From the sequence record SRR20825006_1817: a stretch of 43,755 bases of DNA, one strand, 5' to 3'. A model generated the notes under the pieces. The model had not been told where the DNA came from, did not search any database, and saw nothing but the letters and a program-made list of their open reading frames with translations. This document shows, one piece after another, positions 660 to 42,590 of the stretch (positions within the stretch are counted from its first letter, which is position 1; each line of letters begins with the position of its first letter). Both the position numbers and the translations under genes were made by a program.

Positions 660-677
660 AAAGATAATTTTATCTTT
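660..677. promoter_or_regulatory. Putative Rrf2 operator, 7-4-7 palindrome AAAGATA-ATTT-TATCTTT
   Basis: Perfect arms; four related copies elsewhere in the window. Confidence 0.7.
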
Positions 678-6060: not shown

Positions 6061-7926
6061 TCAGATTCTCATTGCTTTTTGGTCTTTATTGCTTTTTTGA
6101 TTTTCCGAAAGGATTTTGGTCCTTTTTTCCATCAATCTTTGTCTGTCATCCTGTTGCAGATGGTAATGACGCAGACCATGTTCCCTTTGCCTTCCGGAAC
6201 TGAAATTGGAAACCCGTTTGAGGTAACCGATGACCCGGGTGGCATGGTCCACATTGTGTGAATGGCATGAACTGCACTCCCAAAGGGTCCGTTTATCGAT
6301 ATGGGAGCAATCATTGCATATGGTAATTCGTATGTTAAAGCAAAAATAGTTGCAACCAGCCCTGGCCGTGGCATGGATCAATTTCTTGAACCCGTCTTGG
6401 TTGGGGGTCTCCTCAAGGTTGAGATGAAGGGCCGATCCCCCATCCAAATATTGGATGGTCTCCTTGCCGTGCAACATGATCTTGTCCAAGGCATTGGTAC
6501 GCTGATCCTCTACCACATAGAAGTAGGAGTTGTAACAGTCCCGCGGAACAAAGAGGCCATCCTCCCGGTCCCATTTGGCATTTTTCACCCCCAAATTTTC
6601 GGCAGGGACAAACTCGGTGTTGAACATATAGCCATACGTTTCCCGTGCCTCTCGGTTTTCCGAATAGATGGCCTTGAGATAGCGATTCACGAAATCTTTG
6701 TAAACCGTATTGTTGCCTACCTGTATGCCCTGGCTTTCCGCCGCCTCGACCATACCATTGATGCCCACGGTAAGGAATTGCTTGTCCAAGGAAATCAATC
6801 CTGCATTGTAAACAGGTAACATGCCCGCTTTTTCATAGTCATCGATAAGCAATCTGAAAGCGACCTGGTACTTATGGATTTTTTGTACCTCGTTGGCAAT
6901 ATCCGCCCCTTTCTGAACCAGGCGGTTCATGTTCAATGTGATCACATTGATGGAACCTGTGGCAACACCACCGGCCCCAAGGGAATAACTAAAGGTGTGG
7001 TCACTTATCTCATTTCGTAAACGACAACAGGACGCCAGACTATCGGCGTTTTCGGATTGATAGATGAAAAAGGAGTTTCCCTTACCTAGTTCATGGGCGC
7101 ACATATCGGTGAATTCTGTATCAACGGGTGCCCCATCCTTGATCAACATGGCGGCAGTTACCACAGGGAAGGTAAGGATGGCCTTGGTACGCTCTTGGTT
7201 GAACCAATCCATAAAGAAAGATTGTAATCTTTTTACACTCTCCCAATCTGGCCTACCCAAGTCGGGAAAGACAAAATCCCCGAACATATTGTCGAAATAC
7301 GGCTTGTCATAAATGGAAATGTTCCAGAATACAGACTGGTACCCTCTTGCAGCGGCAGGCTGGTTGATGGCATATACGACATGCTGCAAATGGTTGGCAA
7401 TGATTTTTTTATGGGTGTCCAGATAGTCAGGCCCATAATCCTTGGAGGCAAAATGATCAAAGTACATCAAAAACTCCACCGTGGCCAATGCCCCTGCAAA
7501 TTGGGAACTGACCGCAAAGACCAAATTGACAAATTCCCCACAAAAGCTCTCCAAGTGCTTTGGGGCCTGGCTTTCACCGCCCAATTTGGTCAATCCATCC
7601 AACAGAAAGGGGTACATACTGATTGAGGCACAATACGGTTTTAGGGAGGTCTCATCATGGACATAGATTTCATGGGACTCTATTTGCCTTACATACTCAT
7701 TGGCCAAATCGTTCCCGAACAAGGACGCGATCTTTTGTTGGACCAGGGCCCTGTTCACTTGGATGTTGATATCCTTGTTGAGTTCGGCCTCCATGGTGGC
7801 AATGTTCTTGGAGGTGACATTGGCATTGGCATCGACTTTGGACCCATCCGCCGCATTGTCGGAATGTAGGTAGTGGTCAATGAATGCAATTTTTTTGGCA
7901 ATCTGATTTTCGGTCAGGCGTATCAT
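6061..7926 (-). CDS. nrdD: Anaerobic (class III) ribonucleoside-triphosphate reductase
   Basis: YVHD, SCCRL, GSINVITLN, CNDC/CSSC Zn site, glycyl-radical loop TRVIGYL. Confidence 0.95.
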   Translation of the reverse strand: MIRLTENQIAKKIAFIDHYLHSDNAADGSKVDANANVTSKNIATMEAELNKDINIQVNRALVQQKIASLFGNDLANEYVRQIESHEIYVHDETSLKPYCASISMYPFLLDGLTKLGGESQAPKHLESFCGEFVNLVFAVSSQFAGALATVEFLMYFDHFASKDYGPDYLDTHKKIIANHLQHVVYAINQPAAARGYQSVFWNISIYDKPYFDNMFGDFVFPDLGRPDWESVKRLQSFFMDWFNQERTKAILTFPVVTAAMLIKDGAPVDTEFTDMCAHELGKGNSFFIYQSENADSLASCCRLRNEISDHTFSYSLGAGGVATGSINVITLNMNRLVQKGADIANEVQKIHKYQVAFRLLIDDYEKAGMLPVYNAGLISLDKQFLTVGINGMVEAAESQGIQVGNNTVYKDFVNRYLKAIYSENREARETYGYMFNTEFVPAENLGVKNAKWDREDGLFVPRDCYNSYFYVVEDQRTNALDKIMLHGKETIQYLDGGSALHLNLEETPNQDGFKKLIHATARAGCNYFCFNIRITICNDCSHIDKRTLWECSSCHSHNVDHATRVIGYLKRVSNFSSGRQREHGLRHYHLQQDDRQRLMEKRTKILSENQKSNKDQKAMRI

Positions 7927-7934
7927 ATTGAAAA

Positions 7935-8384
7935 TTATTTAGGGTTGAATAAATGGTTCAGTGATGTGTTGGTGGCAACTTCCCGGAACACTTGGTTCGT
8001 GGCCTTGTGGTCAAGGCCTCCAAGTTTTTGGTTCCACTTACCGGTCTTTATAAAGGTCAAATGCTCAAGTAATGAAGAGGGTACCTGGTCCAATCCAGTA
8101 TAAAGACAAGTTTTATAGCCAAGTTTCCTGGCCTGTTTTAAGTGGGACAGCAGTACCTTATGATGCCATTCCCCACCCATAAAAAGTACACAACTTGCAA
8201 GACCCTCATACCGGTCCAAGTGATTTTGGAAAACCCCGGGAGTAAGCTTGTTTCCCTGTCCCTCTTTCCATAGAAATGGGGAATGGCAGCCAATACAGCG
8301 CAATGGACATCCCGAGATGGAAAAGCAGAGACTGATTTCGCCTGGAACTTCTTGAAACACTACTTGAAAGTCATAATAGAACAT
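7935..8384 (-). CDS. nrdG: Class III RNR activating radical SAM protein
   Basis: EVPGEISL, CPLRCIGCHS (CxxxCxxC), MGGEW; adjacent to nrdD. Confidence 0.93.
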   Translation of the reverse strand: MFYYDFQVVFQEVPGEISLCFSISGCPLRCIGCHSPFLWKEGQGNKLTPGVFQNHLDRYEGLASCVLFMGGEWHHKVLLSHLKQARKLGYKTCLYTGLDQVPSSLLEHLTFIKTGKWNQKLGGLDHKATNQVFREVATNTSLNHLFNPK

Positions 8385-9416: not shown

Positions 9417-10145
9417 TTAATTGGAAAGCAGTTTTTTTTCCAAGATTTCTGCTTTTGGGAAAAGAATATTATTTTCCAAATGAATGTGCCGGTGGAGATC
9501 ATCCTCAAATTCCTGCAATAAGGAATATGTCACTCGATAGGTGTTGCAGGCATCCGCTGGGGGTGTGTAATCGTTGCTCAGTGCAGCAATCTTTCGAAAT
9601 CGCTCCCCTTCGTTGTCATGTTCCTGCATCATCATTTGGATGGGATTGCGTACCGTACCAAAGTGGGGTGGGTCTAATGCTTCACGATCGGCGATACCCT
9701 CGACCATTTTACGGATCCAAGGGAAGAGGACGAGTTCCTCTTTTTTCATGTGCATGGCCAGTTCCCCAGATGATTGCCTGAAATGTTCAAATATTTCGAA
9801 CAGCTCTGGATGACGTTCTCCGTGTACCCTGCACAGTTTGTCCAAATATTGATTGAGTATGGGAATGTGCTCTTCCACATAGCGATGGTGCTTCTTTTCA
9901 ATATAATCGACTAACAGATCCAATGGCCAGGATGCTACATCGGGCCGGTCTCCTTGGTCTTTACTTTGTACTTGATCCAATTCTTCCATCAATGTTTCTA
10001 GATCCAAACCTTTTTTGGAAGCGACTTCTGACAGGGTTCGGTTCCCCTTGCAACAGAAGTCTATTTTGTGTGCTTTAAAGACCTGGGCAGTCCTGTAGTC
10101 ATCCGCCACCATTTGCCCAATCGTTTTTTCCATGGTACTGTTCAT
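9417..10145 (-). CDS. ric: Iron-sulfur cluster repair di-iron protein (YtfE/ScdA)
   Basis: IDFCC, HH, HMKKEELVLFP, EHD, HIHLENNILFP. Confidence 0.96.
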   Translation of the reverse strand: MNSTMEKTIGQMVADDYRTAQVFKAHKIDFCCKGNRTLSEVASKKGLDLETLMEELDQVQSKDQGDRPDVASWPLDLLVDYIEKKHHRYVEEHIPILNQYLDKLCRVHGERHPELFEIFEHFRQSSGELAMHMKKEELVLFPWIRKMVEGIADREALDPPHFGTVRNPIQMMMQEHDNEGERFRKIAALSNDYTPPADACNTYRVTYSLLQEFEDDLHRHIHLENNILFPKAEILEKKLLSN

Positions 10146-10654: not shown

Positions 10655-10694
10655 CAAAGATAAGGTTTAATTTAACTAGGACAAAATTATCCTT
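10655..10694 (-). promoter_or_regulatory. -7 element TATCTTTG (10655-10662) plus putative Rrf2 operator TAGGACA-AAAT-TATCCTT (10677-10694)
   Basis: Exact TAnnTTTG and palindrome copy upstream of Rrf2 paralog 2. Confidence 0.65.
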
Positions 10695-19731: not shown

Positions 19732-19775
19732 CAAAAATAGTGTAGGGGCTATATCAAAAACATGATATAAATCAT
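19732..19775 (-). promoter_or_regulatory. Fnr-like box ATGAT-ATAA-ATCAT (19762-19775) + 22 bp + TATTTTTG, nos operon promoter
   Basis: Perfect arms and exact -7 consensus. Confidence 0.75.
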
Positions 19776-19778
19776 AAA

Positions 19779-19796
19779 AAGGATAAAAATGTCTTT
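19779..19796. promoter_or_regulatory. Putative Rrf2 operator AAGGATA-AAAA-TGTCTTT
   Basis: Motif copy in the divergent nos / Rrf2 paralog 3 spacer. Confidence 0.7.
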
Positions 19797-20374: not shown

Positions 20375-21230
20375 TTAAAACTCTATCTCGAAGTACAAAC
20401 TGCTACTTTCGTTCTCTTCCGTAACACTTTCTCCTTTTAAGATTTCATCATTGGCATTGAGCAGCTGTAAGTTGATTTTCCAGTAACCGGTCATGGTAAA
20501 AGACAGTTTGCCAGTATAGTTGCCGGTAGTGGTGTCATAGGTTAAATCCTCATTGTTGGGGGAGCCATGGTTGCCCATACCCGGCATTCTAGGGTCAATG
20601 GTAATGGTGTAATCTTCCACAATGGAAAAACTCATCATGGATTCCATTTTGAACAGTACGGCCGATAGATCGTTGATAGCAACTTCTGGGGCAAGGGGCA
20701 TCATGGCCAAAACATAACGGGTATCATCTGCCCCCATGAAGACATTGACCGTTTTTTTACCATCAATTGGAGCGTTGACCTCTATGGTTTCCGAAATGGT
20801 ATAGGTGGTGCCCCCAAAGCTGTATTCCAGGTTCAATTCCCAATATTCGTTGGCGTTGGTGGCCATTTGTAAAGACCACAAAGCCTTTATAGACGGTTTT
20901 TTCCTCTGTTGCCAAAATCTCCGATTTTGGACAGGAATGGCTCATTTGGGTCATGTGCATAACGGGATTCCAAGTAATGGTTGCATTGGGGATATATTCT
21001 CCGGTTGACAAATCTTTGATTTGGAGGTATAGCTCATTGTAACCTGTGGTCAAAACCTCTTTTTCAGAATATAGCTCCAACATGTGGCCATTGGCCTCAA
21101 AACTACTCGTTAGATTATAGGCTTCCAATGGATTTTCAGTTACAGGCATTGGGTTTTCGTTGTCATCGGAGCAAGATGTTATTCCAACAGATAGTGCAAT
21201 CAATATGATTAGGGATTTTATAGTTTTCAT
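20375..21230 (-). pseudogene. FixH/YtkA-like Met/His-rich lipoprotein split by a 1-nt insertion near 20870
   Basis: Two overlapping ORFs join as GFVVF|QMATNANEYW if one A is removed; lipobox ITSC; PVMHMTQMSHSCP and PRMPGMGNHGSP repeats. Confidence 0.8.
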
Positions 21231-21253: not shown

Positions 21254-23314
21254 TTAATTAATGGCATAGGATAAGGTCATGAAAAAGTTCCTTCCCATGC
21301 GGGGTATATTGTTCCAATCGGAATACGTTGAGTAATAGGTGTCAAATAGGTTTTCAACCCCTGCCTTCACATACAGCGTATTCCCACCAAGGGAAAAGGT
21401 CTTCCCGAAGGATAGGGACAGTAGCGCATAGCCAGGCGTATGGTCCTCCCCAAAAGTGGGGCTGAAATTGGTTTGGTCCATTGCACCGGATAAGGTCACT
21501 GATCCCGAAAAACTTTCATGGGCATAGCTCAATTGGGAACGGTAGTCAACAGGACTGATAAAGGGCAGATTACGACCATTGTGATCTGTGCCCCTGTGAT
21601 AAGAGACCCGTCCACTCCAGTTAAGTTCAGGGGTAAACATGTACTCCATATCCATAGAAACATTGTAAAGGTTGGCATGTTTCAAATTGGTATAGACTTT
21701 AACACCATCGGCGCCTATGGTCATTTCGTTGAGCGCTGGCTCAATTTCACCAACAATATAATCCCTGGTGTGAAAGTAATTGCCCTCCAGACCAAGTTCC
21801 AGATTATCCAATGGTAATGTAACTTTGATTTGGGTCTCCAAGGCTTTTTCATTCTTGAGATCTGGGTCGCCAATGTAATCGTGGTTGTCAAAACTGTTGA
21901 ACAGATAAAAACCAAACCCCTCAGAAACTGATGGAGCGCGATCACCATAGGCAACACCACCGTTTACATGCCATTTCTTAAACTGTTTGTGATAATGCGC
22001 TGAAACACTTTTTAGTGTGCGTGTTTGCTTTTGGCCCATATCTGGATAGAAAATCCGAAGACTGTTCAGCCCAAAATCATCTGCCACATGAAACGATTGG
22101 TAGGCCAGTCGAGTAGCTAATTTTAGGACACCGTCATTGAGGTTGATTTTGTCCTCCAGATAAAGACCCGTATTCAACGTCCGTACATCTGGCCAGGTAA
22201 GCATGAACATTTCCTGCTCATTGGGGTTGTTGGGATACATGGTCATTTCCGCCAAGGAACGATTGTAAAATCCATCGATTTTACCCATAAACCTATGGTT
22301 ACCAAAAGAGAGCTCGGCCTGGGAATAAAACCCATAGGTGTCACTCCAACCGGGCATATCCATTCGAATGGGCACATCGGGTCTTTGGCTGTCATCCATA
22401 ATATGCGTAATGGTGTTGGCATATAGCTTGGATTCCCAATTCTCAAGGTTTCCAATAAAATTGGATTGCACCCAACTTAGAGATCCAATAAAGGCACGTG
22501 CCAAGGATACATCCATGGGAAGGGCAGGGTAGCCTACATCCCGGGCCTCGTCAAAAATAAAACTGGCTAACATTTTTTGGTCATCGGAGACTTTGTACCC
22601 AGCATTGGCCGACAGATTGTATTTTTCATATTGGGAAAAGGCAACCTCTTCCCCGCCACCAGCGGTATAGTTTTCTGCCTTCCGATAAATGATATCGGTA
22701 TCCAAATAGAAATTTTCATCAGAGTAATTGAGCTCTCCACCCACAATTTGAGAGGTGTTATTGGTCTCATAACCCGTCTCTACAGCGGCTGTCCAGCCCA
22801 AGGGTTTAAAGTTGCTCTTTTCCAATCGCATATCAATGGCTCCTCCAATTACATTGCCGTGTTGGGCACCTTGTTGTCCACTTTTCACCTGGACATCCGA
22901 AAGATTGGATACGTCCACATAGGATGTTATAGGGTCCATTTTATCCGTACAGGCCCCAAAAATGCGCATACCATCAATGGTAATGGACAATCGCTCAGAG
23001 GTCATGTCATTGAGCATTGGGTCCCAGGCATATGCACCACGCTTGACCATGGATACTTTCTTGGAAGATTCCAGGTATTCATCCAAAGTGGACAGTGGGT
23101 TTGGTTGCGATTTGTGTTCAATACTTCTTTTAAAGGATGAGATGACAATGACCTCCTTTAAATCGATGGTCAAAATTGAATCCAAGGTTTGGAACCCTAT
23201 GGGTTCTTGGGCCTGGAGCTTTGACTGAAAAATTGACATTAGGCAAAGCCCAAGGACAACCAACAGATATTTTATGCAAGCTGACCTGGCCCGAAATGAA
23301 TAGTTCGATTTCAT
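21254..23314 (-). CDS. TonB-dependent receptor, OprC-like copper type
   Basis: Plug GACTDKMDP (CxxxM) and barrel HIM (HxM); VENLFD...GRNF C-terminus. Confidence 0.85.
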   Translation of the reverse strand: MKSNYSFRARSACIKYLLVVLGLCLMSIFQSKLQAQEPIGFQTLDSILTIDLKEVIVISSFKRSIEHKSQPNPLSTLDEYLESSKKVSMVKRGAYAWDPMLNDMTSERLSITIDGMRIFGACTDKMDPITSYVDVSNLSDVQVKSGQQGAQHGNVIGGAIDMRLEKSNFKPLGWTAAVETGYETNNTSQIVGGELNYSDENFYLDTDIIYRKAENYTAGGGEEVAFSQYEKYNLSANAGYKVSDDQKMLASFIFDEARDVGYPALPMDVSLARAFIGSLSWVQSNFIGNLENWESKLYANTITHIMDDSQRPDVPIRMDMPGWSDTYGFYSQAELSFGNHRFMGKIDGFYNRSLAEMTMYPNNPNEQEMFMLTWPDVRTLNTGLYLEDKINLNDGVLKLATRLAYQSFHVADDFGLNSLRIFYPDMGQKQTRTLKSVSAHYHKQFKKWHVNGGVAYGDRAPSVSEGFGFYLFNSFDNHDYIGDPDLKNEKALETQIKVTLPLDNLELGLEGNYFHTRDYIVGEIEPALNEMTIGADGVKVYTNLKHANLYNVSMDMEYMFTPELNWSGRVSYHRGTDHNGRNLPFISPVDYRSQLSYAHESFSGSVTLSGAMDQTNFSPTFGEDHTPGYALLSLSFGKTFSLGGNTLYVKAGVENLFDTYYSTYSDWNNIPRMGRNFFMTLSYAIN

Positions 23315-23406
23315 GGTTAAAGGTTTTGAATCAATTCAAAAAAAATAAAGGGCACCTGGTAGTTGGGAAAGTATTGGAGATTTCCACTAGGGTACATCGA
23401 ATTTGT

Positions 23407-23784
23407 TTAAGCTTGCTCTGGAGGGTGGGGAATGTCGCTAACAAAAAGTGATGTAGGTAAATCTTGATAATAATAACCACTGGGGGTTATGCAAGTTTGG
23501 AATTGTAAGGACAAGTCAACGGATGGTATAGGTTGAAAGAAATCCATAGCTTGGACTTCCGTTTTTGACCGTTGATCTCCAAAGGGATTTCTATCGGAAT
23601 CTTTTTGTTGTTCTTTCAATTGTTGCGCCAAGTAGCACTTACCATTACATTGCAATTCTGGCTTATTCTTGTTTTTACAGAGCACTTCTGAGATATATTC
23701 ATAATTGGCTACGTATTCCATGATGGGCCAAAGGGGTTTGACCAACATCGAAAAAGCGACCAAAAGAATAATAGTGTGCTTCAT
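23407..23784 (-). CDS. Cys-rich small protein ending ...IPHPP (DUF2946/CruR-like), probably leaderless
   Basis: N-terminal hydrophobic segment, LCKNKNKPELQCNGKCYL, C-terminal HPP; ATG 5 nt after the -7 element. Confidence 0.7.
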   Translation of the reverse strand: MKHTIILLVAFSMLVKPLWPIMEYVANYEYISEVLCKNKNKPELQCNGKCYLAQQLKEQQKDSDRNPFGDQRSKTEVQAMDFFQPIPSVDLSLQFQTCITPSGYYYQDLPTSLFVSDIPHPPEQA

Positions 23785-23789
23785 AGGGA

Positions 23790-23833
23790 CAAAAGTAGGG
23801 TTGACCAAAAAGTCAGGACATGATAATTGTCAT
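23790..23833 (-). promoter_or_regulatory. Fnr-like box ATGAT-AATT-GTCAT (23820-23833) + 22 bp + TACTTTTG, copper uptake operon promoter
   Basis: Same spacing as the nos promoter; exact -7 consensus. Confidence 0.72.
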
Positions 23834-23836
23834 AAA

Positions 23837-23869
23837 AAAGATAAAAATATCTTTTAATTTTTAGTTTTG
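23837..23869 (+). promoter_or_regulatory. Putative Rrf2 operator AAAGATA-AAAA-TATCTTT (23837-23854) and plus-strand -7 element TAGTTTTG (23862-23869)
   Basis: Perfect arms; exact TAnnTTTG facing the kinase gene. Confidence 0.62.
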
Positions 23870-36465: not shown

Positions 36466-38799
36466 ATGTCTATGTACAAATCTATAACCAATAGAAGAAG
36501 CTTTATAAAAAAAATGGCAATGCTTTCCGCAATGACAGCAGCAGCTTCGATGTTTCCTGGGATTGTCTTTGCCAGTGAACAGGAAAAGGCTATTCCTGAA
36601 GATGCCAACCTGGATTGGAAAAAAGGTCCCTGTCGTTTTTGTGGTGTGGGTTGCGGTATTCTGGTAGGAACGGAAAATGGAAAGGCTGTTGCGGTAAAAG
36701 GAGATCCAAACTCTTCTGTAAACAAAGGCCTGTTATGTGTGAAAGGATATCACCAGATCATGTGTATCCAATCCAAGGATAGGCTCCAGCATGCCCTGGT
36801 CAAGAAAAATGGACGATATGTAAAAACCCCACTTAGCGAAGCACTTGATATTGTTGCTGACAAGATGAAGGGTACCATTGATACCCATGGCAAGGATGCG
36901 GTGGCGATGTACACTTCTGGGCAATCAACAATCCCAGAAGGCTATGTGGCCTCCAAATTCATGAAGGGAGCTATTGGGACCAATAACTTGGATTGTAATG
37001 CACGCCTTTGCATGGCAAGTGCTGTGACCGGGTTTTTAACCACATTTGGTGCAGATGAACCAATGGGCTGCTATGAAGATATCGACCATGCAGATTATTT
37101 TGTTACTTGGGGCAACAATATGGCAGAAATGCACCCTGTCCTATTCTCTAGAATGCTTGAGCAAAAAGCAACAAGGGGTGCAAAAATCATAGACTTTGCG
37201 ACAAGGACAACACGTTCAAGTACAGCATCGGACAAGTCCATACTATTTGAACCACAAACCGATTTGGCCGTAGCAAACGCCATTTGTTATGAGATCATCA
37301 AAAACAATTGGGTAAATACATCCTTTGTGGAAAAACACTGTAACTTCAGTAAGGGGCTTACCAATATGGGCTATGGGCTTGAGGACAACTACACCTTCAC
37401 GGACAAACCGGAACAGATAGATTTTGAAACCTATAAAGAATTCTTAAAGGATTACAGTCCCGAAAAAGTTTCAAAATATTCCAAAGTATCGGTTAAGGAC
37501 ATTAAGTATTTGGCCGCTATTTATGGCGACCCCAATAAAAAAGTCGTTTCCTATTGGTGTATGGGGATGAACCAACACACGAGGGGTACTTGGATAAACA
37601 ACCTGGTGTATAACATTCATTTGTTGACCGGAAAGATTTCACAACCGGGTAATGGACCATTCTCATTGACGGGCCAACCCTCAGCTTGTGGTACTGCACG
37701 GGAAGTCGGTACCTTTACGCACAAGTTGCCTCACGGTGTTGTTACGAATAAAAAGGATAGGGAAATGGCCGCCAAAATCTGGAAAGTTCCCTATGAACGT
37801 ATTCCCTCAAAACCAACCTACCATGCCACAGAAATGTTCAGGGCGGTGGATAGGGGCGATATTAAATTCATCTGGATACAGGCGACCAACCCTTTGGTAT
37901 CCCTCCCAAAAACAAGCCGTTACCGTCCCGGAATGCAAAAGGATTCTTGTTTTGTCGTGGTGTCGGATGTCTTTCCTACTCCTACTTCCGATGTGGCCGA
38001 TGTTATACTTCCCGCGGCTTGGCATATCGAGAAAAGTGGTCTGTACGGTAACTCTGAACGGAGAACACAACATTGGAATAAAATGGTGGAAGCCCCGGGT
38101 GAGGCCACTGAAGATGCATGGATGTTCATCGAGGTTGCCAGGCGGATGGGTTATGGGGATCTATTCCCTTATAGTAGAGAAAACCACGTAGAGGAAATCT
38201 TTAACGAGTACAGACGGTTCCATGAAGGACCAAAACACGGAATGGCACCTCTAGAGGTACTTAAAAAGGAGTCCGGGGTTATTTGGCCTTATGTAAATGG
38301 AAAATCCACCCAATGGAGATTCAATACCAAATATGACCCTGCCTGTTCCAATGGTGAAGACTTTCATTTTTATGGAAAACCTGATGGTAGGGCAGTCATA
38401 TGGCAACGTCCTTTTGAGGAAGCACCTGAAAAACCGGACCAAGAATATCCTTTTTGGCTCAATACCGGCAGAGTTGTGGAACACTGGCATACTGGCTCCA
38501 TGACACGAAGAATACCTGTTTTGCACCAGGCAATGCCCCATGCATATGTGGAATTTCACCCAGAGGATGCTAAATCTTTGGGAATAAGAAATGGTGAAAA
38601 GGTAAAGGTAACTTCAAAAAGAGGCTCTTGTACATTGCCTGCATCCATAAATGAAAGAGGTCTGCCTACAAAGGGACAGGTCTTTGTACCATTTTTTGAT
38701 GAAAATATGTTGATCAACGACGTAACCTTGGATGCCTTTTGCCCTATTTCAAAAGAACCCGATTATAAGAAGTGCGCTGTTAAGGTCGAAAAAGTATAG
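36466..38799 (+). CDS. napA: Periplasmic nitrate reductase catalytic subunit
   Basis: Tat RRSFIK, PCRFCGVGC, NARLCMASA, MGMNQH, GQPSACGTAREVG, EHWHTGSMT, DYKKCAV. Confidence 0.93.
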   Translation: MSMYKSITNRRSFIKKMAMLSAMTAAASMFPGIVFASEQEKAIPEDANLDWKKGPCRFCGVGCGILVGTENGKAVAVKGDPNSSVNKGLLCVKGYHQIMCIQSKDRLQHALVKKNGRYVKTPLSEALDIVADKMKGTIDTHGKDAVAMYTSGQSTIPEGYVASKFMKGAIGTNNLDCNARLCMASAVTGFLTTFGADEPMGCYEDIDHADYFVTWGNNMAEMHPVLFSRMLEQKATRGAKIIDFATRTTRSSTASDKSILFEPQTDLAVANAICYEIIKNNWVNTSFVEKHCNFSKGLTNMGYGLEDNYTFTDKPEQIDFETYKEFLKDYSPEKVSKYSKVSVKDIKYLAAIYGDPNKKVVSYWCMGMNQHTRGTWINNLVYNIHLLTGKISQPGNGPFSLTGQPSACGTAREVGTFTHKLPHGVVTNKKDREMAAKIWKVPYERIPSKPTYHATEMFRAVDRGDIKFIWIQATNPLVSLPKTSRYRPGMQKDSCFVVVSDVFPTPTSDVADVILPAAWHIEKSGLYGNSERRTQHWNKMVEAPGEATEDAWMFIEVARRMGYGDLFPYSRENHVEEIFNEYRRFHEGPKHGMAPLEVLKKESGVIWPYVNGKSTQWRFNTKYDPACSNGEDFHFYGKPDGRAVIWQRPFEEAPEKPDQEYPFWLNTGRVVEHWHTGSMTRRIPVLHQAMPHAYVEFHPEDAKSLGIRNGEKVKVTSKRGSCTLPASINERGLPTKGQVFVPFFDENMLINDVTLDAFCPISKEPDYKKCAVKVEKV

Positions 38800-38802
38800 A
38801 CG

Positions 38803-39522
38803 ATGAGAAAACGTTTGGGAATCATATCGTTCTTTGTGGTCATCTTTGTAGCATTTATAGTTATCTGGAACTATAGTTATTTACAAGGTCGGGAAGATGC
38901 CTATATCCCTGTGATCGACGTACCATCAGGAAACTATATTCCTTCTGAACGAGGAGCCTTTCTTCGATTTGAAAATCCAAATATGGATTATGCCAAAATG
39001 CCGGTGGATGAGAATCATCAGCGGTCATTGAAAGACTATTATGACAATAGGGCCTATCTGGGGGCACCGCCCAGTATCCCCCATCCAGTGGCAAAAGAAA
39101 GAAGTTTTGGAGGCAATACCTGCATACAATGTCATCAAAACGGTGGGTTCGTAGAAAAATTCAATGCGTATGCTCCCGTAACTCCGCATCCGGAAATGGT
39201 GAACTGTCGTCAGTGCCACGTTACCAAAAATACAAATACAACTTTTACGGAATTTAATTTCGATAAAATGCAACCTCCAAAAGTTGGTATAGGAGCAAAC
39301 AATGCCATGCCAGGAAGTCCCCCAATGATCCCACATCAATTGCAATTTAGGGAAAGTTGCATATCCTGCCATGCTGGTCCGAGTGCACCCAAAGAGATCA
39401 GGGTGACACATCCGGACCGCATTAATTGTAGGCAATGTCATTTGCCACAAGAAAATAGGGCCGTACAAGAGTTAGATACAAGCACTTTTTTAAGACAATT
39501 TGACCAGCTCAATGAAAAATAG
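38803..39522 (+). CDS. NapB-like cytochrome with duplicated domain (4 CxxCH)
   Basis: GAPPSIPH/GSPPMIPH repeats; CIQCH, CRQCH, CISCH, CRQCH. Confidence 0.85.
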   Translation: MRKRLGIISFFVVIFVAFIVIWNYSYLQGREDAYIPVIDVPSGNYIPSERGAFLRFENPNMDYAKMPVDENHQRSLKDYYDNRAYLGAPPSIPHPVAKERSFGGNTCIQCHQNGGFVEKFNAYAPVTPHPEMVNCRQCHVTKNTNTTFTEFNFDKMQPPKVGIGANNAMPGSPPMIPHQLQFRESCISCHAGPSAPKEIRVTHPDRINCRQCHLPQENRAVQELDTSTFLRQFDQLNEK

Positions 39523-40141
39523 AAACCCAATATATTATGTAATGCTCTTTTTTGCGGTCTCCTTCGTTTCTTGTAAGCAAGAAGGGGAGTACCATTCCAT
39601 TACCGATAAAATAGAAGCTCACCAAAAACCCTATCATGGTGGTTTATCCTCCGAAGAGTTGCTTGTAGGTACTGATTTGATACAAATAGCAGAGGGTGAA
39701 CATACGTTTCTTATCCCCGAACGAAAAGGACAGATCAAATCATATGCCTGTATAGAATGTCATAGCAAACCTTTGAACGAGATGAAGGGCGCTAACGGTC
39801 AGAAAGCACATTGGGATATAAAAATTAACCATGCGGCCATTGAAACAATGGATTGTGCAACATGTCACAATCCGGATAATATGAATAACCTCAAAAGCCT
39901 TACAGGAACAGATATCGATTATAATTTGAGTTATAAACTCTGCGCCCAATGCCACAGCAAGCAGTTTGAAGATTGGAAAGGTGGTGCACACGGAAAAAAA
40001 GTGGCAGGATGGGCGCCGCCAAGGGCATCCATGACCTGTGTCAACTGCCATAACCCCCATAATCCAGGTTTTGAAACCAGGTGGCCCGTACAGTTTAATA
40101 CTCAAAAAGTAAAGGAACGAAAAGATGGCCTAGGTCATTAA
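39512..40141 (+). CDS. Tetraheme cytochrome c lipoprotein
   Basis: Lipobox FVSC; CIECH, CATCH, CAQCH, CVNCH. Confidence 0.9.
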   Translation: MKNRNPIYYVMLFFAVSFVSCKQEGEYHSITDKIEAHQKPYHGGLSSEELLVGTDLIQIAEGEHTFLIPERKGQIKSYACIECHSKPLNEMKGANGQKAHWDIKINHAAIETMDCATCHNPDNMNNLKSLTGTDIDYNLSYKLCAQCHSKQFEDWKGGAHGKKVAGWAPPRASMTCVNCHNPHNPGFETRWPVQFNTQKVKERKDGLGH

Positions 40142-40151
40142 AAATATAGGT

Positions 40152-41279
40152 ATGAGCGAAAGTAAAAAATGGTATTCTTTAGACTTGGGTCTACATAAAA
40201 AATCGGAACCTTCAGAGACCTGTGGCTGTGGCCATACGCAAGGAAGTTGCGGCAGTAGCCCCAAACAAGAAAAATTGAGTGCTGAGGAATTCTATGAGGC
40301 GGCCATCAACGCTTCCATCGGTGACGAAAGAAAAAGGGATGGCTTTGAGCAGGTGTTCGATGTTAAAATGGACAGAAGGGATGCTTTTAAAAAACTAACC
40401 GCCAGTCTTCTTATTGGTGCAGGTGCGGTCAGCTCCTGTACAAGTGTGGTCCAAGGAGCGGATAGCAAGGAAAAAGCACAGATAGATTGGGAAGAGCAGT
40501 TCAAAGGCAATTATAAATTGATGACCGATGACGAAAAAAAGCGGACCGTTGATAGGTTAATGCGTTCTTATGAATTAAGAACAGGCAAGAGCATCAACAT
40601 GTCATCGAAGAATGCTGAGGAGGACGTGCTTTTTGGATATGCGTTCAATATTTCCAAATGTCAAGGATATATGGACTGTGTAAGTGCTTGTGTCGAAGAA
40701 AACAATCAGGACAGAAAATCACAGATGCAGTATATCCGTATCCATGAGATGAAAGATGGTAAAGGCTTCAATTTTAATGAGGCCGATGACAATTATTATC
40801 ACGAAGTACCGGCCGAAGGTCATTTTTATATGGGTACCCAGTGTTTTCATTGCGATAACCCTCCTTGTGTGGATGTTTGCCCTGTCCAAGCAACCTGGAA
40901 AGAAGAAGATGGTCTGGTAGTGATTGATTATGATTGGTGTGTTGGATGCCGTTATTGTATGGCTGCGTGCCCGTATGACGGAAGACGCTTTAATTGGAGC
41001 AAGCCCGAGGTTCCTGAAAATGAAATCAATAAAAATCAACACTATCTCGGAAATAGAATCCGTAAGAAAGGTGTAATGGAAAAGTGTACATTTTGCGTAC
41101 AGCGGTCAAGAAACGGTAAAAACCCTGCCTGTGTGGAAGCTTGCCCTACAGGAGCCAGAATTTTCGGAAACTTACTGGATCCCAATAGCACCATCCGATG
41201 GGTGTTGGAGAACAAGAAAGTGTTTCGATTAAAGGAAGATCTGGGCACGGAACCCAAGTTCTGGTATTTTATGGATTAA
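40152..41279 (+). CDS. NrfC/DsrO-like Fe-S protein
   Basis: CFHCDNPPCVDVCP, CVGCRYCMAACP, KCTFC...ACVEACP; internal RRDAFKK. Confidence 0.9.
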   Translation: MSESKKWYSLDLGLHKKSEPSETCGCGHTQGSCGSSPKQEKLSAEEFYEAAINASIGDERKRDGFEQVFDVKMDRRDAFKKLTASLLIGAGAVSSCTSVVQGADSKEKAQIDWEEQFKGNYKLMTDDEKKRTVDRLMRSYELRTGKSINMSSKNAEEDVLFGYAFNISKCQGYMDCVSACVEENNQDRKSQMQYIRIHEMKDGKGFNFNEADDNYYHEVPAEGHFYMGTQCFHCDNPPCVDVCPVQATWKEEDGLVVIDYDWCVGCRYCMAACPYDGRRFNWSKPEVPENEINKNQHYLGNRIRKKGVMEKCTFCVQRSRNGKNPACVEACPTGARIFGNLLDPNSTIRWVLENKKVFRLKEDLGTEPKFWYFMD

Positions 41280-41357
41280 AAATTAAAATACAGAAGAATC
41301 TACAACCTATGGGCTTTGTTGGTAACACTGTATTGGCAATGCGAAAAACAATAGAGA

Positions 41358-42590
41358 ATGAGACAATTAAAAGTGATCAGGAGCTTGGTGATCGATAGTT
41401 TGGACACGATTACCAAAGGCTCTAAAAAATACCACCTTTGGATGGGTTTTTTAACCCTTGTCATGCTCATTGGGATGTACTGCTATTCCATTCAGTTGGA
41501 TGAGGGATTAAGCGTAACTGGAATGACGGATAGGGTCAGTTGGGGGCTCTATATTTCAAATTTCACATTCTTGGTAGGCGTAGCGGCCGCAGCGGTAATG
41601 CTTGTAATGCCCACCTATGTTTTGAAGGATATTGATTTTAAACAGGCCGTCCTTATTGGGGAAGGACTGGCAGTGGCTGCTTTGATCATGTGTCTGGCGT
41701 TTGTTGTTGCAGATATGGGCGGGCCATCGGTGTTATGGCATATGATTCCAGGTATCGGTGTATTTAATTTTCCGAATTCCATGCTCACTTGGGATGTAAT
41801 CGTACTCAACGGATATCTCTTCATCAACATTAGTATTCCCTTTTATATACTTTACAGACATTATCAGAATAAAGAGGCCAAGAAGAGCATATATGTGCCG
41901 GGCGCTGTATTGTCCGTATTCTGGGCTGTCGGTATCCATTTGGTGACCGCATTCCTTTATCAAGGGCTACAGGCACGCCCTTTTTGGAATAACGCGTTGT
42001 TGGGGCCTCGATTCCTTGCCTCTGCATTTGCCGCTGGACCTGCGTTGATCATATTGGTGTTGGCGATAATCCGTTCTTTTACGGCGTTCAAAATACCAGA
42101 TAAAACCATAGGGAAAATTGCCATGATCGTCACGGTTGCTGCGCAAATCAATTTGATCATGCTGGTCTCGGAACTGTTCAAAGAATTTTATGCACCCACA
42201 CACCACAGTGAAAGTGCCTATTACTTATTTTTTGGACTCCATGGGAAAAATGCATTATTGCCCTGGATTTGGACGGCCATACCCCTTAATGTTTTGGCCA
42301 CGGTTATGTTGACCTTCGGAAAACTCCGAAAAAACCCAAAAATATTATACTTCTGTTGCTTTATTCTATTTGTGGCCATATGGATTGAAAAAGGGTTTGG
42401 TCTAATTGTGCCAGGATTTATTCCTGGGCCTTATGGCAAAATTGCGGAATACCTGCCTACGGGGATTGAGGTGGGCGTTACTTTGGGTATTTGGGCATTA
42501 GGGGCATTTGTCTTTACTATTCTTGCAAAAACCGCTATTGGAATCGAGCTTGGGGAATTACGGTTTAAATTAAAACAAACAGAATCGTGA
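41358..42590 (+). CDS. NrfD/DsrP/PsrC family membrane quinol oxidoreductase subunit
   Basis: WGLYISNFTFLVGVAA, ADMG, SMLTWD, RFLASAF; about 10 TM. Confidence 0.9.
   Translation: MRQLKVIRSLVIDSLDTITKGSKKYHLWMGFLTLVMLIGMYCYSIQLDEGLSVTGMTDRVSWGLYISNFTFLVGVAAAAVMLVMPTYVLKDIDFKQAVLIGEGLAVAALIMCLAFVVADMGGPSVLWHMIPGIGVFNFPNSMLTWDVIVLNGYLFINISIPFYILYRHYQNKEAKKSIYVPGAVLSVFWAVGIHLVTAFLYQGLQARPFWNNALLGPRFLASAFAAGPALIILVLAIIRSFTAFKIPDKTIGKIAMIVTVAAQINLIMLVSELFKEFYAPTHHSESAYYLFFGLHGKNALLPWIWTAIPLNVLATVMLTFGKLRKNPKILYFCCFILFVAIWIEKGFGLIVPGFIPGPYGKIAEYLPTGIEVGVTLGIWALGAFVFTILAKTAIGIELGELRFKLKQTES

Follow-up and report, generated by a model that had tools for sequence, protein, structure and literature searches.

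The 125-aa open reading frame (ORF) ahead of a TonB-dependent receptor gene in sequence record SRR20825006_1817 probably encodes a cis-acting leader peptide of the same kind as CruR and CutF. By analogy with CruR, the ribosome would stall at a Pro-Pro (PP) pair close to the C-terminus when copper is low, and would be released when copper binds. The whole stretch of DNA that was analysed, 43,755 nucleotides, is called the window.

The leader ORF (P0001) is found on the minus strand at positions 23407..23784, with the stop codon ending at 23407, and is a member of an unnamed Bacteroidota family. A -7 box of the Bacteroidota sigma-A type TAnnTTTG (TACTTTTG, minus strand, 23790..23797) is followed by 5 nt and the ATG at 23784. 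A start at the TTG at 23808 was discarded, as this codon is upstream of the -7 box and the homologues align from the ATG. The N-terminal hydrophobic helix (residues 1-26; 23707..23784, minus strand), assigned from KD19 and an AF2 model, has a conserved [KR]P-xx-P and a KD19 maximum of 1.89, and is probably an uncleaved signal anchor, as judged from the sequence. In the AF2 model the helix covers residues 2-26 at a pLDDT of about 90, whereas the overall model, three helices and an extended C-terminal half, has a pLDDT of 74 and a pTM of 0.27. The three-cysteine motif C36-x9-C46xxxC50, where the last part reads C46NGKC50 (23635..23679, minus strand), is invariant in alignment A2. Three more residues separate IPHPP, residues 118-122 (23419..23433, minus strand), from the stop. 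The intergenic region (23315..23406, minus strand) is 92 nt long up to the receptor ATG at 23314, and folding predicts two hairpins in it (23395-23352 and 23341-23324). The preliminary description of this locus had reported the box only 5 nt before the ATG, the 125-aa product with hydrophobic N-terminus, C-x9-CNGKC and C-terminal IPHPP, and the spacing of 92 nt, and all of this was borne out. P0001 is 98% identical to a protein in a record titled Flagellimonas lutimaris. It has no match in Pfam and NCBIfam at E<=0.1, and a structure search of its model against PDB gave no solved fold.

A profile search with the family resulted in 7,450 clusters at 50% identity (E<=0.001), with matches in 107 of 301 Bacteroidota genomes from many taxonomic families, aerobes as well as anaerobes. 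The tie to N2O respiration that had been proposed for the leader is not upheld for the family. C-x9-CxxxC was found in all 150 top representatives, PP was inside the last 10 residues in 141 of 150 diverse homologues (3% in shuffles) and inside the last 15 residues in 144, the remaining six appearing truncated or frameshifted; these counts are biased, as the search profile itself favours PP and the other motif features counted. In the weakest phylum-wide matches the cysteine spacing is relaxed or the motif unmatched. The C-terminal consensus is [ILV]-F-[HRK]-P-P, mostly 2-5 residues before the stop, and the distance from the last Cys to PP is 64-74 residues with a mode of 69-71. The residue directly before PP (n=144) is H in 58, R in 33, P in 18, K in 17 and Q in 10 sequences, and the residue two before PP (n=144) is F in 74, L in 25, T in 13 and others in the rest, with R in none. 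HPP, earlier suggested as the arrest motif, is not upheld as such, since PP alone is invariant and the His is not conserved. Of 134 aligned members, 131 have a hydrophobic N-terminus (KD19>=1.6). Conservation is high over residues 16-56, and the linker from there to PP is variable in sequence and constant in length. In the Atlas, P0001 is placed among unnamed Bacteroidota clusters, and the nearest named clusters, DUF2946/CzcI and DUF6660 (score 0.89), are taken as a lead only.

The downstream gene (21254..23314, minus strand), identified with phmmer and NCBIfam, encodes an OprC/NosA-like TonB-dependent receptor of 686 aa with CxxxM and HxM, motifs which we take to form the copper site of OprC. 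Both motifs aligned with OprC 6fok (phmmer E 8e-17), all 6 PDB matches of the receptor are OprC, and the best NCBIfam match was TIGR01778 with 133.5 bits, under the equivalog cut-off of 472. What had been described as a copper-type receptor is therefore an OprC homologue. Beyond the receptor, the window contains a YtkA-like lipoprotein gene, an Rrf2 gene and a clade II nos (nosZ) cluster. The YtkA-like gene (20375..21230, minus strand) is split by one extra base near 20870, as seen by comparison with L003, where it is intact (284 aa). This base is absent in L003 and in the metagenomic relatives X1 and X3 and present in X8, from which the window may itself originate, and is either an assembly error or a strain mutation.

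Gene neighbours were counted in a close set of 102 copies (83 loci) and a phylum-wide set of 72 copies (70 loci), both holding near-duplicates, and genes under 80 aa were skipped. The leader and the next called gene share a strand in 102/102 close and 72/72 phylum-wide copies, 174 in total. In the close set, the first neighbour is MbnP in 31 cases, an OprC-like receptor in 25, a YtkA-like lipoprotein in 21, YHS (then SCO) in 13, SCO in 4 and another gene in 8. The corresponding phylum-wide numbers are 16 for MbnP, 15 for YtkA-like and 14 for OprC-like proteins, 12 for an unnamed envelope protein bearing Cys, His and Met, 10 for other TBDRs and 5 for other genes (two AraC-like, one methyltransferase, two unassigned). 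OprC-like, YtkA-like, MbnP, MbnH, SCO or PCuAC proteins are among the next three genes in 52 of these 72 copies. All 55 near-full-length OprC-like neighbours match the CxxxM and HxM patterns, two of the first matches looking like chance. A minority of family copies precede genes without a copper link (AraC-like, SusC, methyltransferase). The expectation that homologues end in xPP and precede metal genes was looked at in these sets: near-terminal PP is common and the next genes are mostly of copper type. Motif counts and neighbour genes together support a leader resembling CruR and CutF, in which the Cys and PP motifs are fixed, ahead of copper-type operons.

The leader is repeated ahead of each sub-unit in several genomes. 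Chryseobacterium and some Flavobacterium loci have two or three family copies per cluster, one per sub-unit, for example YHS-SCO-SOD and then MbnP-MbnH with a leader copy each. Multi-copy loci are L025, L029, L036, L041, L045, L055, L064, L065, L071, L074, L078 and L081 as well as L159, L160, L116 and L120. Internal copies often begin 3-4 nt after the preceding gene and are without a -7 box of their own. Additionally, an envelope protein of 300-350 aa (L068:7168-8178; cluster C4) follows MbnH, or the leader directly, in many loci. It has an N-terminal CxxCxC or a His/Met-rich start and no Pfam or NCBIfam match, and is a candidate for an unnamed copper transporter.

In Flavobacterium the -7 box is found at -12 to -5, with 4-5 nt to the transcription start site (TSS) (PMC6847099 and PMC9723704, accessible parts), and leaderless mRNAs make up about 5% (the same sources and PMC7366714, accessible part). 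The pattern of TAnnTTTG, 4-5 nt and ATG occurs once in the window with 2.1 expected. Since the box plus ATG alone is not rare, the claim of a leaderless mRNA depends on conservation. A -7 box is located 4-5 nt before the aligned start, which is ATG, GTG or in a few cases TTG, in 52 of the 102 close copies (83 loci, near-duplicates included). Among the phylum-wide copies only 12 of 72 have it, and it is common in those of Flavobacteriaceae type; the leaderless start is therefore a lineage feature and not a requirement. Contigs X1 and X3 from RNA runs extend through the leader promoter and probably hold DNA, and from the X5 RNA run a single contig of 255 nt falls within the leader, with a depth of 2.9, which is too thin to count as evidence.

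Published expression tables are available for F. psychrophilum (PMC9723704, supplement; 60K arrays, two replicates, conditions without copper). The locus of THC0290_1633 in these tables has genes of 339, 807, 1044 and 963 nt with a first spacer of 123 nt, and the sizes fit the family's layout of leader, MbnP, MbnH and unnamed gene. A sigma-A TSS is given 33 nt upstream of the annotated start, and when counted on the sequence printed in PMC9723704 it coincides exactly with a GTG that stands 4 nt behind TAnnTTTG. Starting at this GTG, THC0290_1633 has 123 aa, and this fits the GTG(-34)/ATG(-23) pair of the family. Judged by gene order, lengths and promoter pattern, THC0290_1633 is likely the family orthologue; the F. 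psychrophilum leader DNA was searched for, and not found, in 401 genomes of the genus, in metagenome contigs and among the best 120 protein matches. Box spacing, conservation in close copies and the TSS of this likely orthologue are consistent with the leaderless mRNA that had been proposed.

For THC0290_1633, the log2 changes of leader and spacer were -0.57 and -3.66 in serum, -0.75 and -2.96 in plasma, -0.68 and -3.28 in mucus, and -0.9 and -3.87 in blood (PMC9723704, supplement). RNA just downstream of the leader thus falls about 7-15-fold, and the leader mRNA barely moves. Body fluids of this kind generally supply copper. An unlinked locus, 0922/0923, consists of a 137-aa gene of no known function, a 720-aa TBDR, a spacer and a membrane protein, a layout as in four family loci. 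Here the log2 changes of leader and downstream part were -1.0 and -3.6 in serum, -1.8 and -5.0 in mucus, and +0.3 and -2.5 in blood, and the co-expression cluster B76 consists of downstream parts of these two loci only (9 of 9 features; PMC9723704, supplement). In the same tables, neither P-type ATPase nor czcD, genes of putative exporters, was clearly up in liquid serum. A leader that stays flat while downstream RNA drops resembles CruR, and this downstream-only repression at two syntenic loci is in line with the leader reading, for loci whose orthology is by synteny and for stimuli that were serum, mucus and blood and not copper.

The mechanism that we propose starts with sigma-A, which would initiate at the ATG or one base before it, as mapped for the likely F. 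psychrophilum orthologue, so that the mRNA would be leaderless. The promoter has a CRP/FNR-type and an Rrf2-type site, both also seen at the nos operon, which would act as common operators. The N-terminal anchor is predicted to target the nascent chain to the membrane. From the spacing of the motifs, the three-Cys module would be outside the ribosome by the time PP, some 70 residues further on, is at the active site. If copper is scarce, the ribosome would, as in CruR, dwell at PP and receptor mRNA would be made or kept. With copper on the cysteines, folding or pulling may free the stall and the downstream RNA would be lost, which is modelled on CruR and on the F. psychrophilum pattern.

As effector step we lean towards Rho-type premature termination. 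The leader array signal in F. psychrophilum is 2-4 log2 (4-16-fold) under the downstream signal when the locus is on (PMC9723704, supplement), and plain termination does not predict this; a probe effect, an internal promoter or RNA processing may account for the low signal. The C>G skew near the end of the leader was 0.30 against -0.08 in controls, and 0.14 against 0.16 at four-fold sites. The raw skew is explained by amino-acid composition and was rejected as a rut-site signal; as it vanishes at four-fold sites, no selected rut site is demonstrated. Stall-dependent RNA processing or stabilisation is the less probable, still sizeable, possibility. Direct unmasking of the receptor start is improbable, and the spacer lengths in the family, from 30 to over 250 nt, argue against unmasking of the CutF/SecM type. 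A conserved attenuator in the spacer was rejected as well, as hairpins were no stronger than in control spacers (mean z -1.9 vs -2.5) and RNAalifold on 12 close spacer sequences gave no consensus pairs. A terminator scan of the 92-nt spacer found none, and Rfam had no family above the gathering score in the spacer, with one chance-level match elsewhere. By eye, a hairpin starting 11-13 nt past the stop recurs in close relatives and was left unaligned by MAFFT.

There is some chance, a low one in our estimate, that the family is a phylum-wide, non-RAPP arrest leader that acts by RNA fate and not by Rho or SD masking. The ribosome would then load at the extreme 5' end of the leaderless mRNA and stall at F[HRK]PP, with the three-Cys module about 70 residues out sampling copper beyond the membrane. 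The stalled ribosome would mark a processing point, shed the leader RNA and protect the hairpin-capped downstream mRNA, and this would explain a downstream signal 4-16-fold above that of the leader when the locus is on. If true, a phylum without Shine-Dalgarno control would have in this leader its main switch for copper import, and at the present locus the leader would gate copper to the N2O reductase.

The ORF could also encode a stable, membrane-anchored periplasmic metal-binding or accessory protein, where a transcription factor or an internal promoter regulates and PP is structural. We find this quite unlikely. The N-terminal 55 residues, with near-invariant Tyr, Asn, Pro and Leu, are conserved beyond what a bare Cys sensor needs, and the higher downstream signal in F. 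psychrophilum is as with an internal promoter. However, the TSSs listed in PMC9723704 (consecutive ids) include no further 5' end between leader and next gene, and no solved fold matches the protein. Furthermore, the C-terminal half lacks conservation and has an extended shape in the low-pTM model, yet it has a fixed length and ends in PP, and the gene heads units or sub-units whose downstream genes differ widely, with one copy per sub-unit.

A small probability is given to a cis arrest leader whose signal is not copper, but another thiophilic metal, the periplasmic redox (disulfide) state or the membrane-insertion capacity. Three cysteines could bind zinc or form disulfides, and some neighbours, a minority, are not copper genes. 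NaCl (-1.7) and dipyridyl (-1.2) likewise repress the F. psychrophilum locus (PMC9723704, supplement), so that repression by serum, mucus, blood, NaCl and dipyridyl does not single out one agent. Against this, the downstream genes are overwhelmingly of copper type (OprC-like, MbnP/MbnH, SCO, PCuAC) and not Sec or Dsb, and the leader operon here adjoins the clade II nosZ cluster.

A switch of the CutF type, in which copper induces the stall, an inhibitory hairpin melts and translation of the next gene is turned on, would agree with the CxxxC and export signal shared with CutF (PMC9973294 and bioRxiv 2025.02.05.636593, accessible parts) and with the hairpins in the spacer, but it is very improbable, as the targets are mostly import systems that copper should shut off, the spacers vary from 30 to over 250 nt and have no conserved structure, the first hairpin is about 30 nt past PP and by our estimate beyond the reach of a stalled ribosome, and the F. 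psychrophilum effect is on the RNA level and begins in the spacer.

The preferred reading, a leader with release by copper, was compared with known systems. CruR (Bp2923, DUF2946/PF11162) of Bordetella pertussis is the leader of cruR-bfrG-bp2921 (PMC9426467, accessible part), and its arrest has been demonstrated (PMC12992588, accessible part). The family shares with it a small exported leader as the first gene of a TBDT operon, a near-terminal PP that a constant distance separates from the Cys motif, and a long spacer, and the order leader-TBDT-PepSY_TM in some Flavobacterium loci is that of cruR-bfrG-bp2921. The family differs in having C-x9-CxxxC (150/150) where CruR has CxxC, [ILV]F[HRK]PP that lacks the RAPP Arg (R in 0 of 144), and a Cys-to-PP distance of 64-74 where that of CruR is about 45; the family is also often leaderless and from Bacteroidota, whereas cruR has a 45-nt leader. 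The PF11162 profile gave no match for P0001, for any of 31 aligned members at E<=1, or in any of 5 family-carrying Bacteroidota genomes. Profile, CxxC, RAPP and spacing thus place the family outside DUF2946, while the export signal and the position as first gene of a copper operon are shared.

CutF of Rhodobacter capsulatus has a cleavable signal peptide and activates a detoxifying oxidase by SD unmasking (PMC9973294; bioRxiv 10.1101/2025.02.05.636593; accessible parts). The family resembles CutF-like proteins in CxxxC, an export signal, a length under 150 aa, PP in the last 15 residues and a same-strand metal gene within 1 kb. P0001 with its 125 aa, PP at 121-122 and 92-nt gap passes the CutF-like filters for length, PP position and same-strand neighbour (Ozturk 2023), and the comparison with the CutF-like list D is by these filters only and not by list membership. 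In contrast to CutF, the family mostly heads uptake genes, is from bacteria not using SD and has a probably uncleaved anchor. List D holds 5,334 proteins, about 19% from Bacteroidota and frequently with TonB receptors as neighbours (PMC9973294, accessible part). The earlier proposal of a Bacteroidota analogue of CruR stands in that a conserved leader family exists there, and is less new than implied, because CutF-like proteins from this phylum were already predicted in that list in 2023.

DUF6660 (PF20365) and HYC_CC_PP (NF047658) proteins also have a hydrophobic N-terminus, Cys motifs and a near-terminal PP, and both are found in the nearest genome, G001, the small-protein loci being L153:1498-1806, L168:972-1388 and L169:1631-2047. 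For the one DUF6660 member compared, hhalign gave a probability of 4.7%, and no sequence relation was found; the 9 family members scanned in NCBIfam had no match to NF047658. At the sequence level, G001 therefore has at least three unrelated leader-like families. Arrest peptides with RAPP/RGPP, LPPP or Pro-stop are known upstream of sec/yidC genes, and arrest has been shown for sec-linked Bacteroidota uORFs (PMC10987492, PMC12992588; accessible parts). These uORFs also combine a localisation signal with a C-terminal proline motif, but differ from the family in motif and targets. Copper-related RAPP/RGPP uORFs are reported as lacking in Bacteroidota in the accessible text of PMC12992588, and the family may fill this gap. 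PMC4176338, in its accessible part, treats XPPP and leaves the strength of HPP unsettled. Our literature search, which mostly did not extend to subscription papers, found no paper naming the family or applying copper to it.

If the preferred reading is true, control of copper import can be named for a large part of the Bacteroidota (107/301 genomes sampled), an arrest motif is added that lacks the Arg considered essential for RAPP peptides, and a leader peptide would be working from a leaderless mRNA in bacteria without SD control. The activity of clade II N2O reductase is copper-limited, and at this locus copper supply would be linked to that enzyme. CruR and CutF had already established the principle, and candidates from Bacteroidota had been predicted by 2023. 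What is gained here is a defined family, a leaderless start that has been mapped in the likely orthologue from F. psychrophilum, and the first expression evidence found, which make a test straightforward in genetically tractable Flavobacterium.

Two palindromes are located upstream of the leader promoter. The first, of type AAAGATA-N4-TATCTTT (23837..23854, unstranded), is a putative Rrf2-family site. It occurs four times in the window (660-677, 10677-10694, 19779-19796 and 23837-23854) against a chance mean of 0.3, a count that is partly circular as the pattern was drawn from the same sites; three of the four are directly upstream of Rrf2 genes. This 18-bp palindrome, common to the leader and nos-operon promoters, is a candidate operator of a flavobacterial Rrf2 regulator for denitrification or NO stress. 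The second, a CRP/FNR-type palindrome ATGAY-N4-RTCAT (23820..23833, unstranded), has its centre at about -42 relative to the start and is separated from the -7 box downstream of it by 22 nt, with equal spacing at the cytochrome c/nos promoter. Sites of this type in the window are 682-695, 19762-19775 and 23820-23833. Of 47 distinct leaderless promoters of the family, 28 have it 22-23 nt upstream of the -7 box, and no other spacing was seen. By class II geometry, the site would serve an activator.

In G001 (L161-L174), 14 composite sites of palindrome plus box were found against 1 in the control, and these 14 promoters are a candidate CRP/FNR-type regulon. The sites precede two nos-type cytochromes c, OmpW, Usp, HPF, FtsH, UbiB-like, MlaE and two HYC_CC_PP genes; OmpW, Usp, HPF and nos-type cytochromes c are typical low-oxygen targets. 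The two palindromes are candidate upstream operators common to the leader and the nos operon and make co-regulation of the two plausible. The motif suggests that the leader operon may be induced under anoxia. Oxygen limitation had no significant effect at the F. psychrophilum MbnP locus, itself without a CRP/FNR-type box (PMC9723704, supplement). A CRP/FNR gene is just upstream of the leader in 15 Flavobacterium-type loci, and is divergent in those listed. Finally, the window at 6061-8384, 9417-10145 and 36466-42590 resembles an anaerobic-respiration region, having class III ribonucleotide reductase-like genes (from translation), a DUF542/hemerythrin (YtfE-like) gene, and a molybdopterin oxidoreductase cluster with multihaem cytochromes and NrfD.
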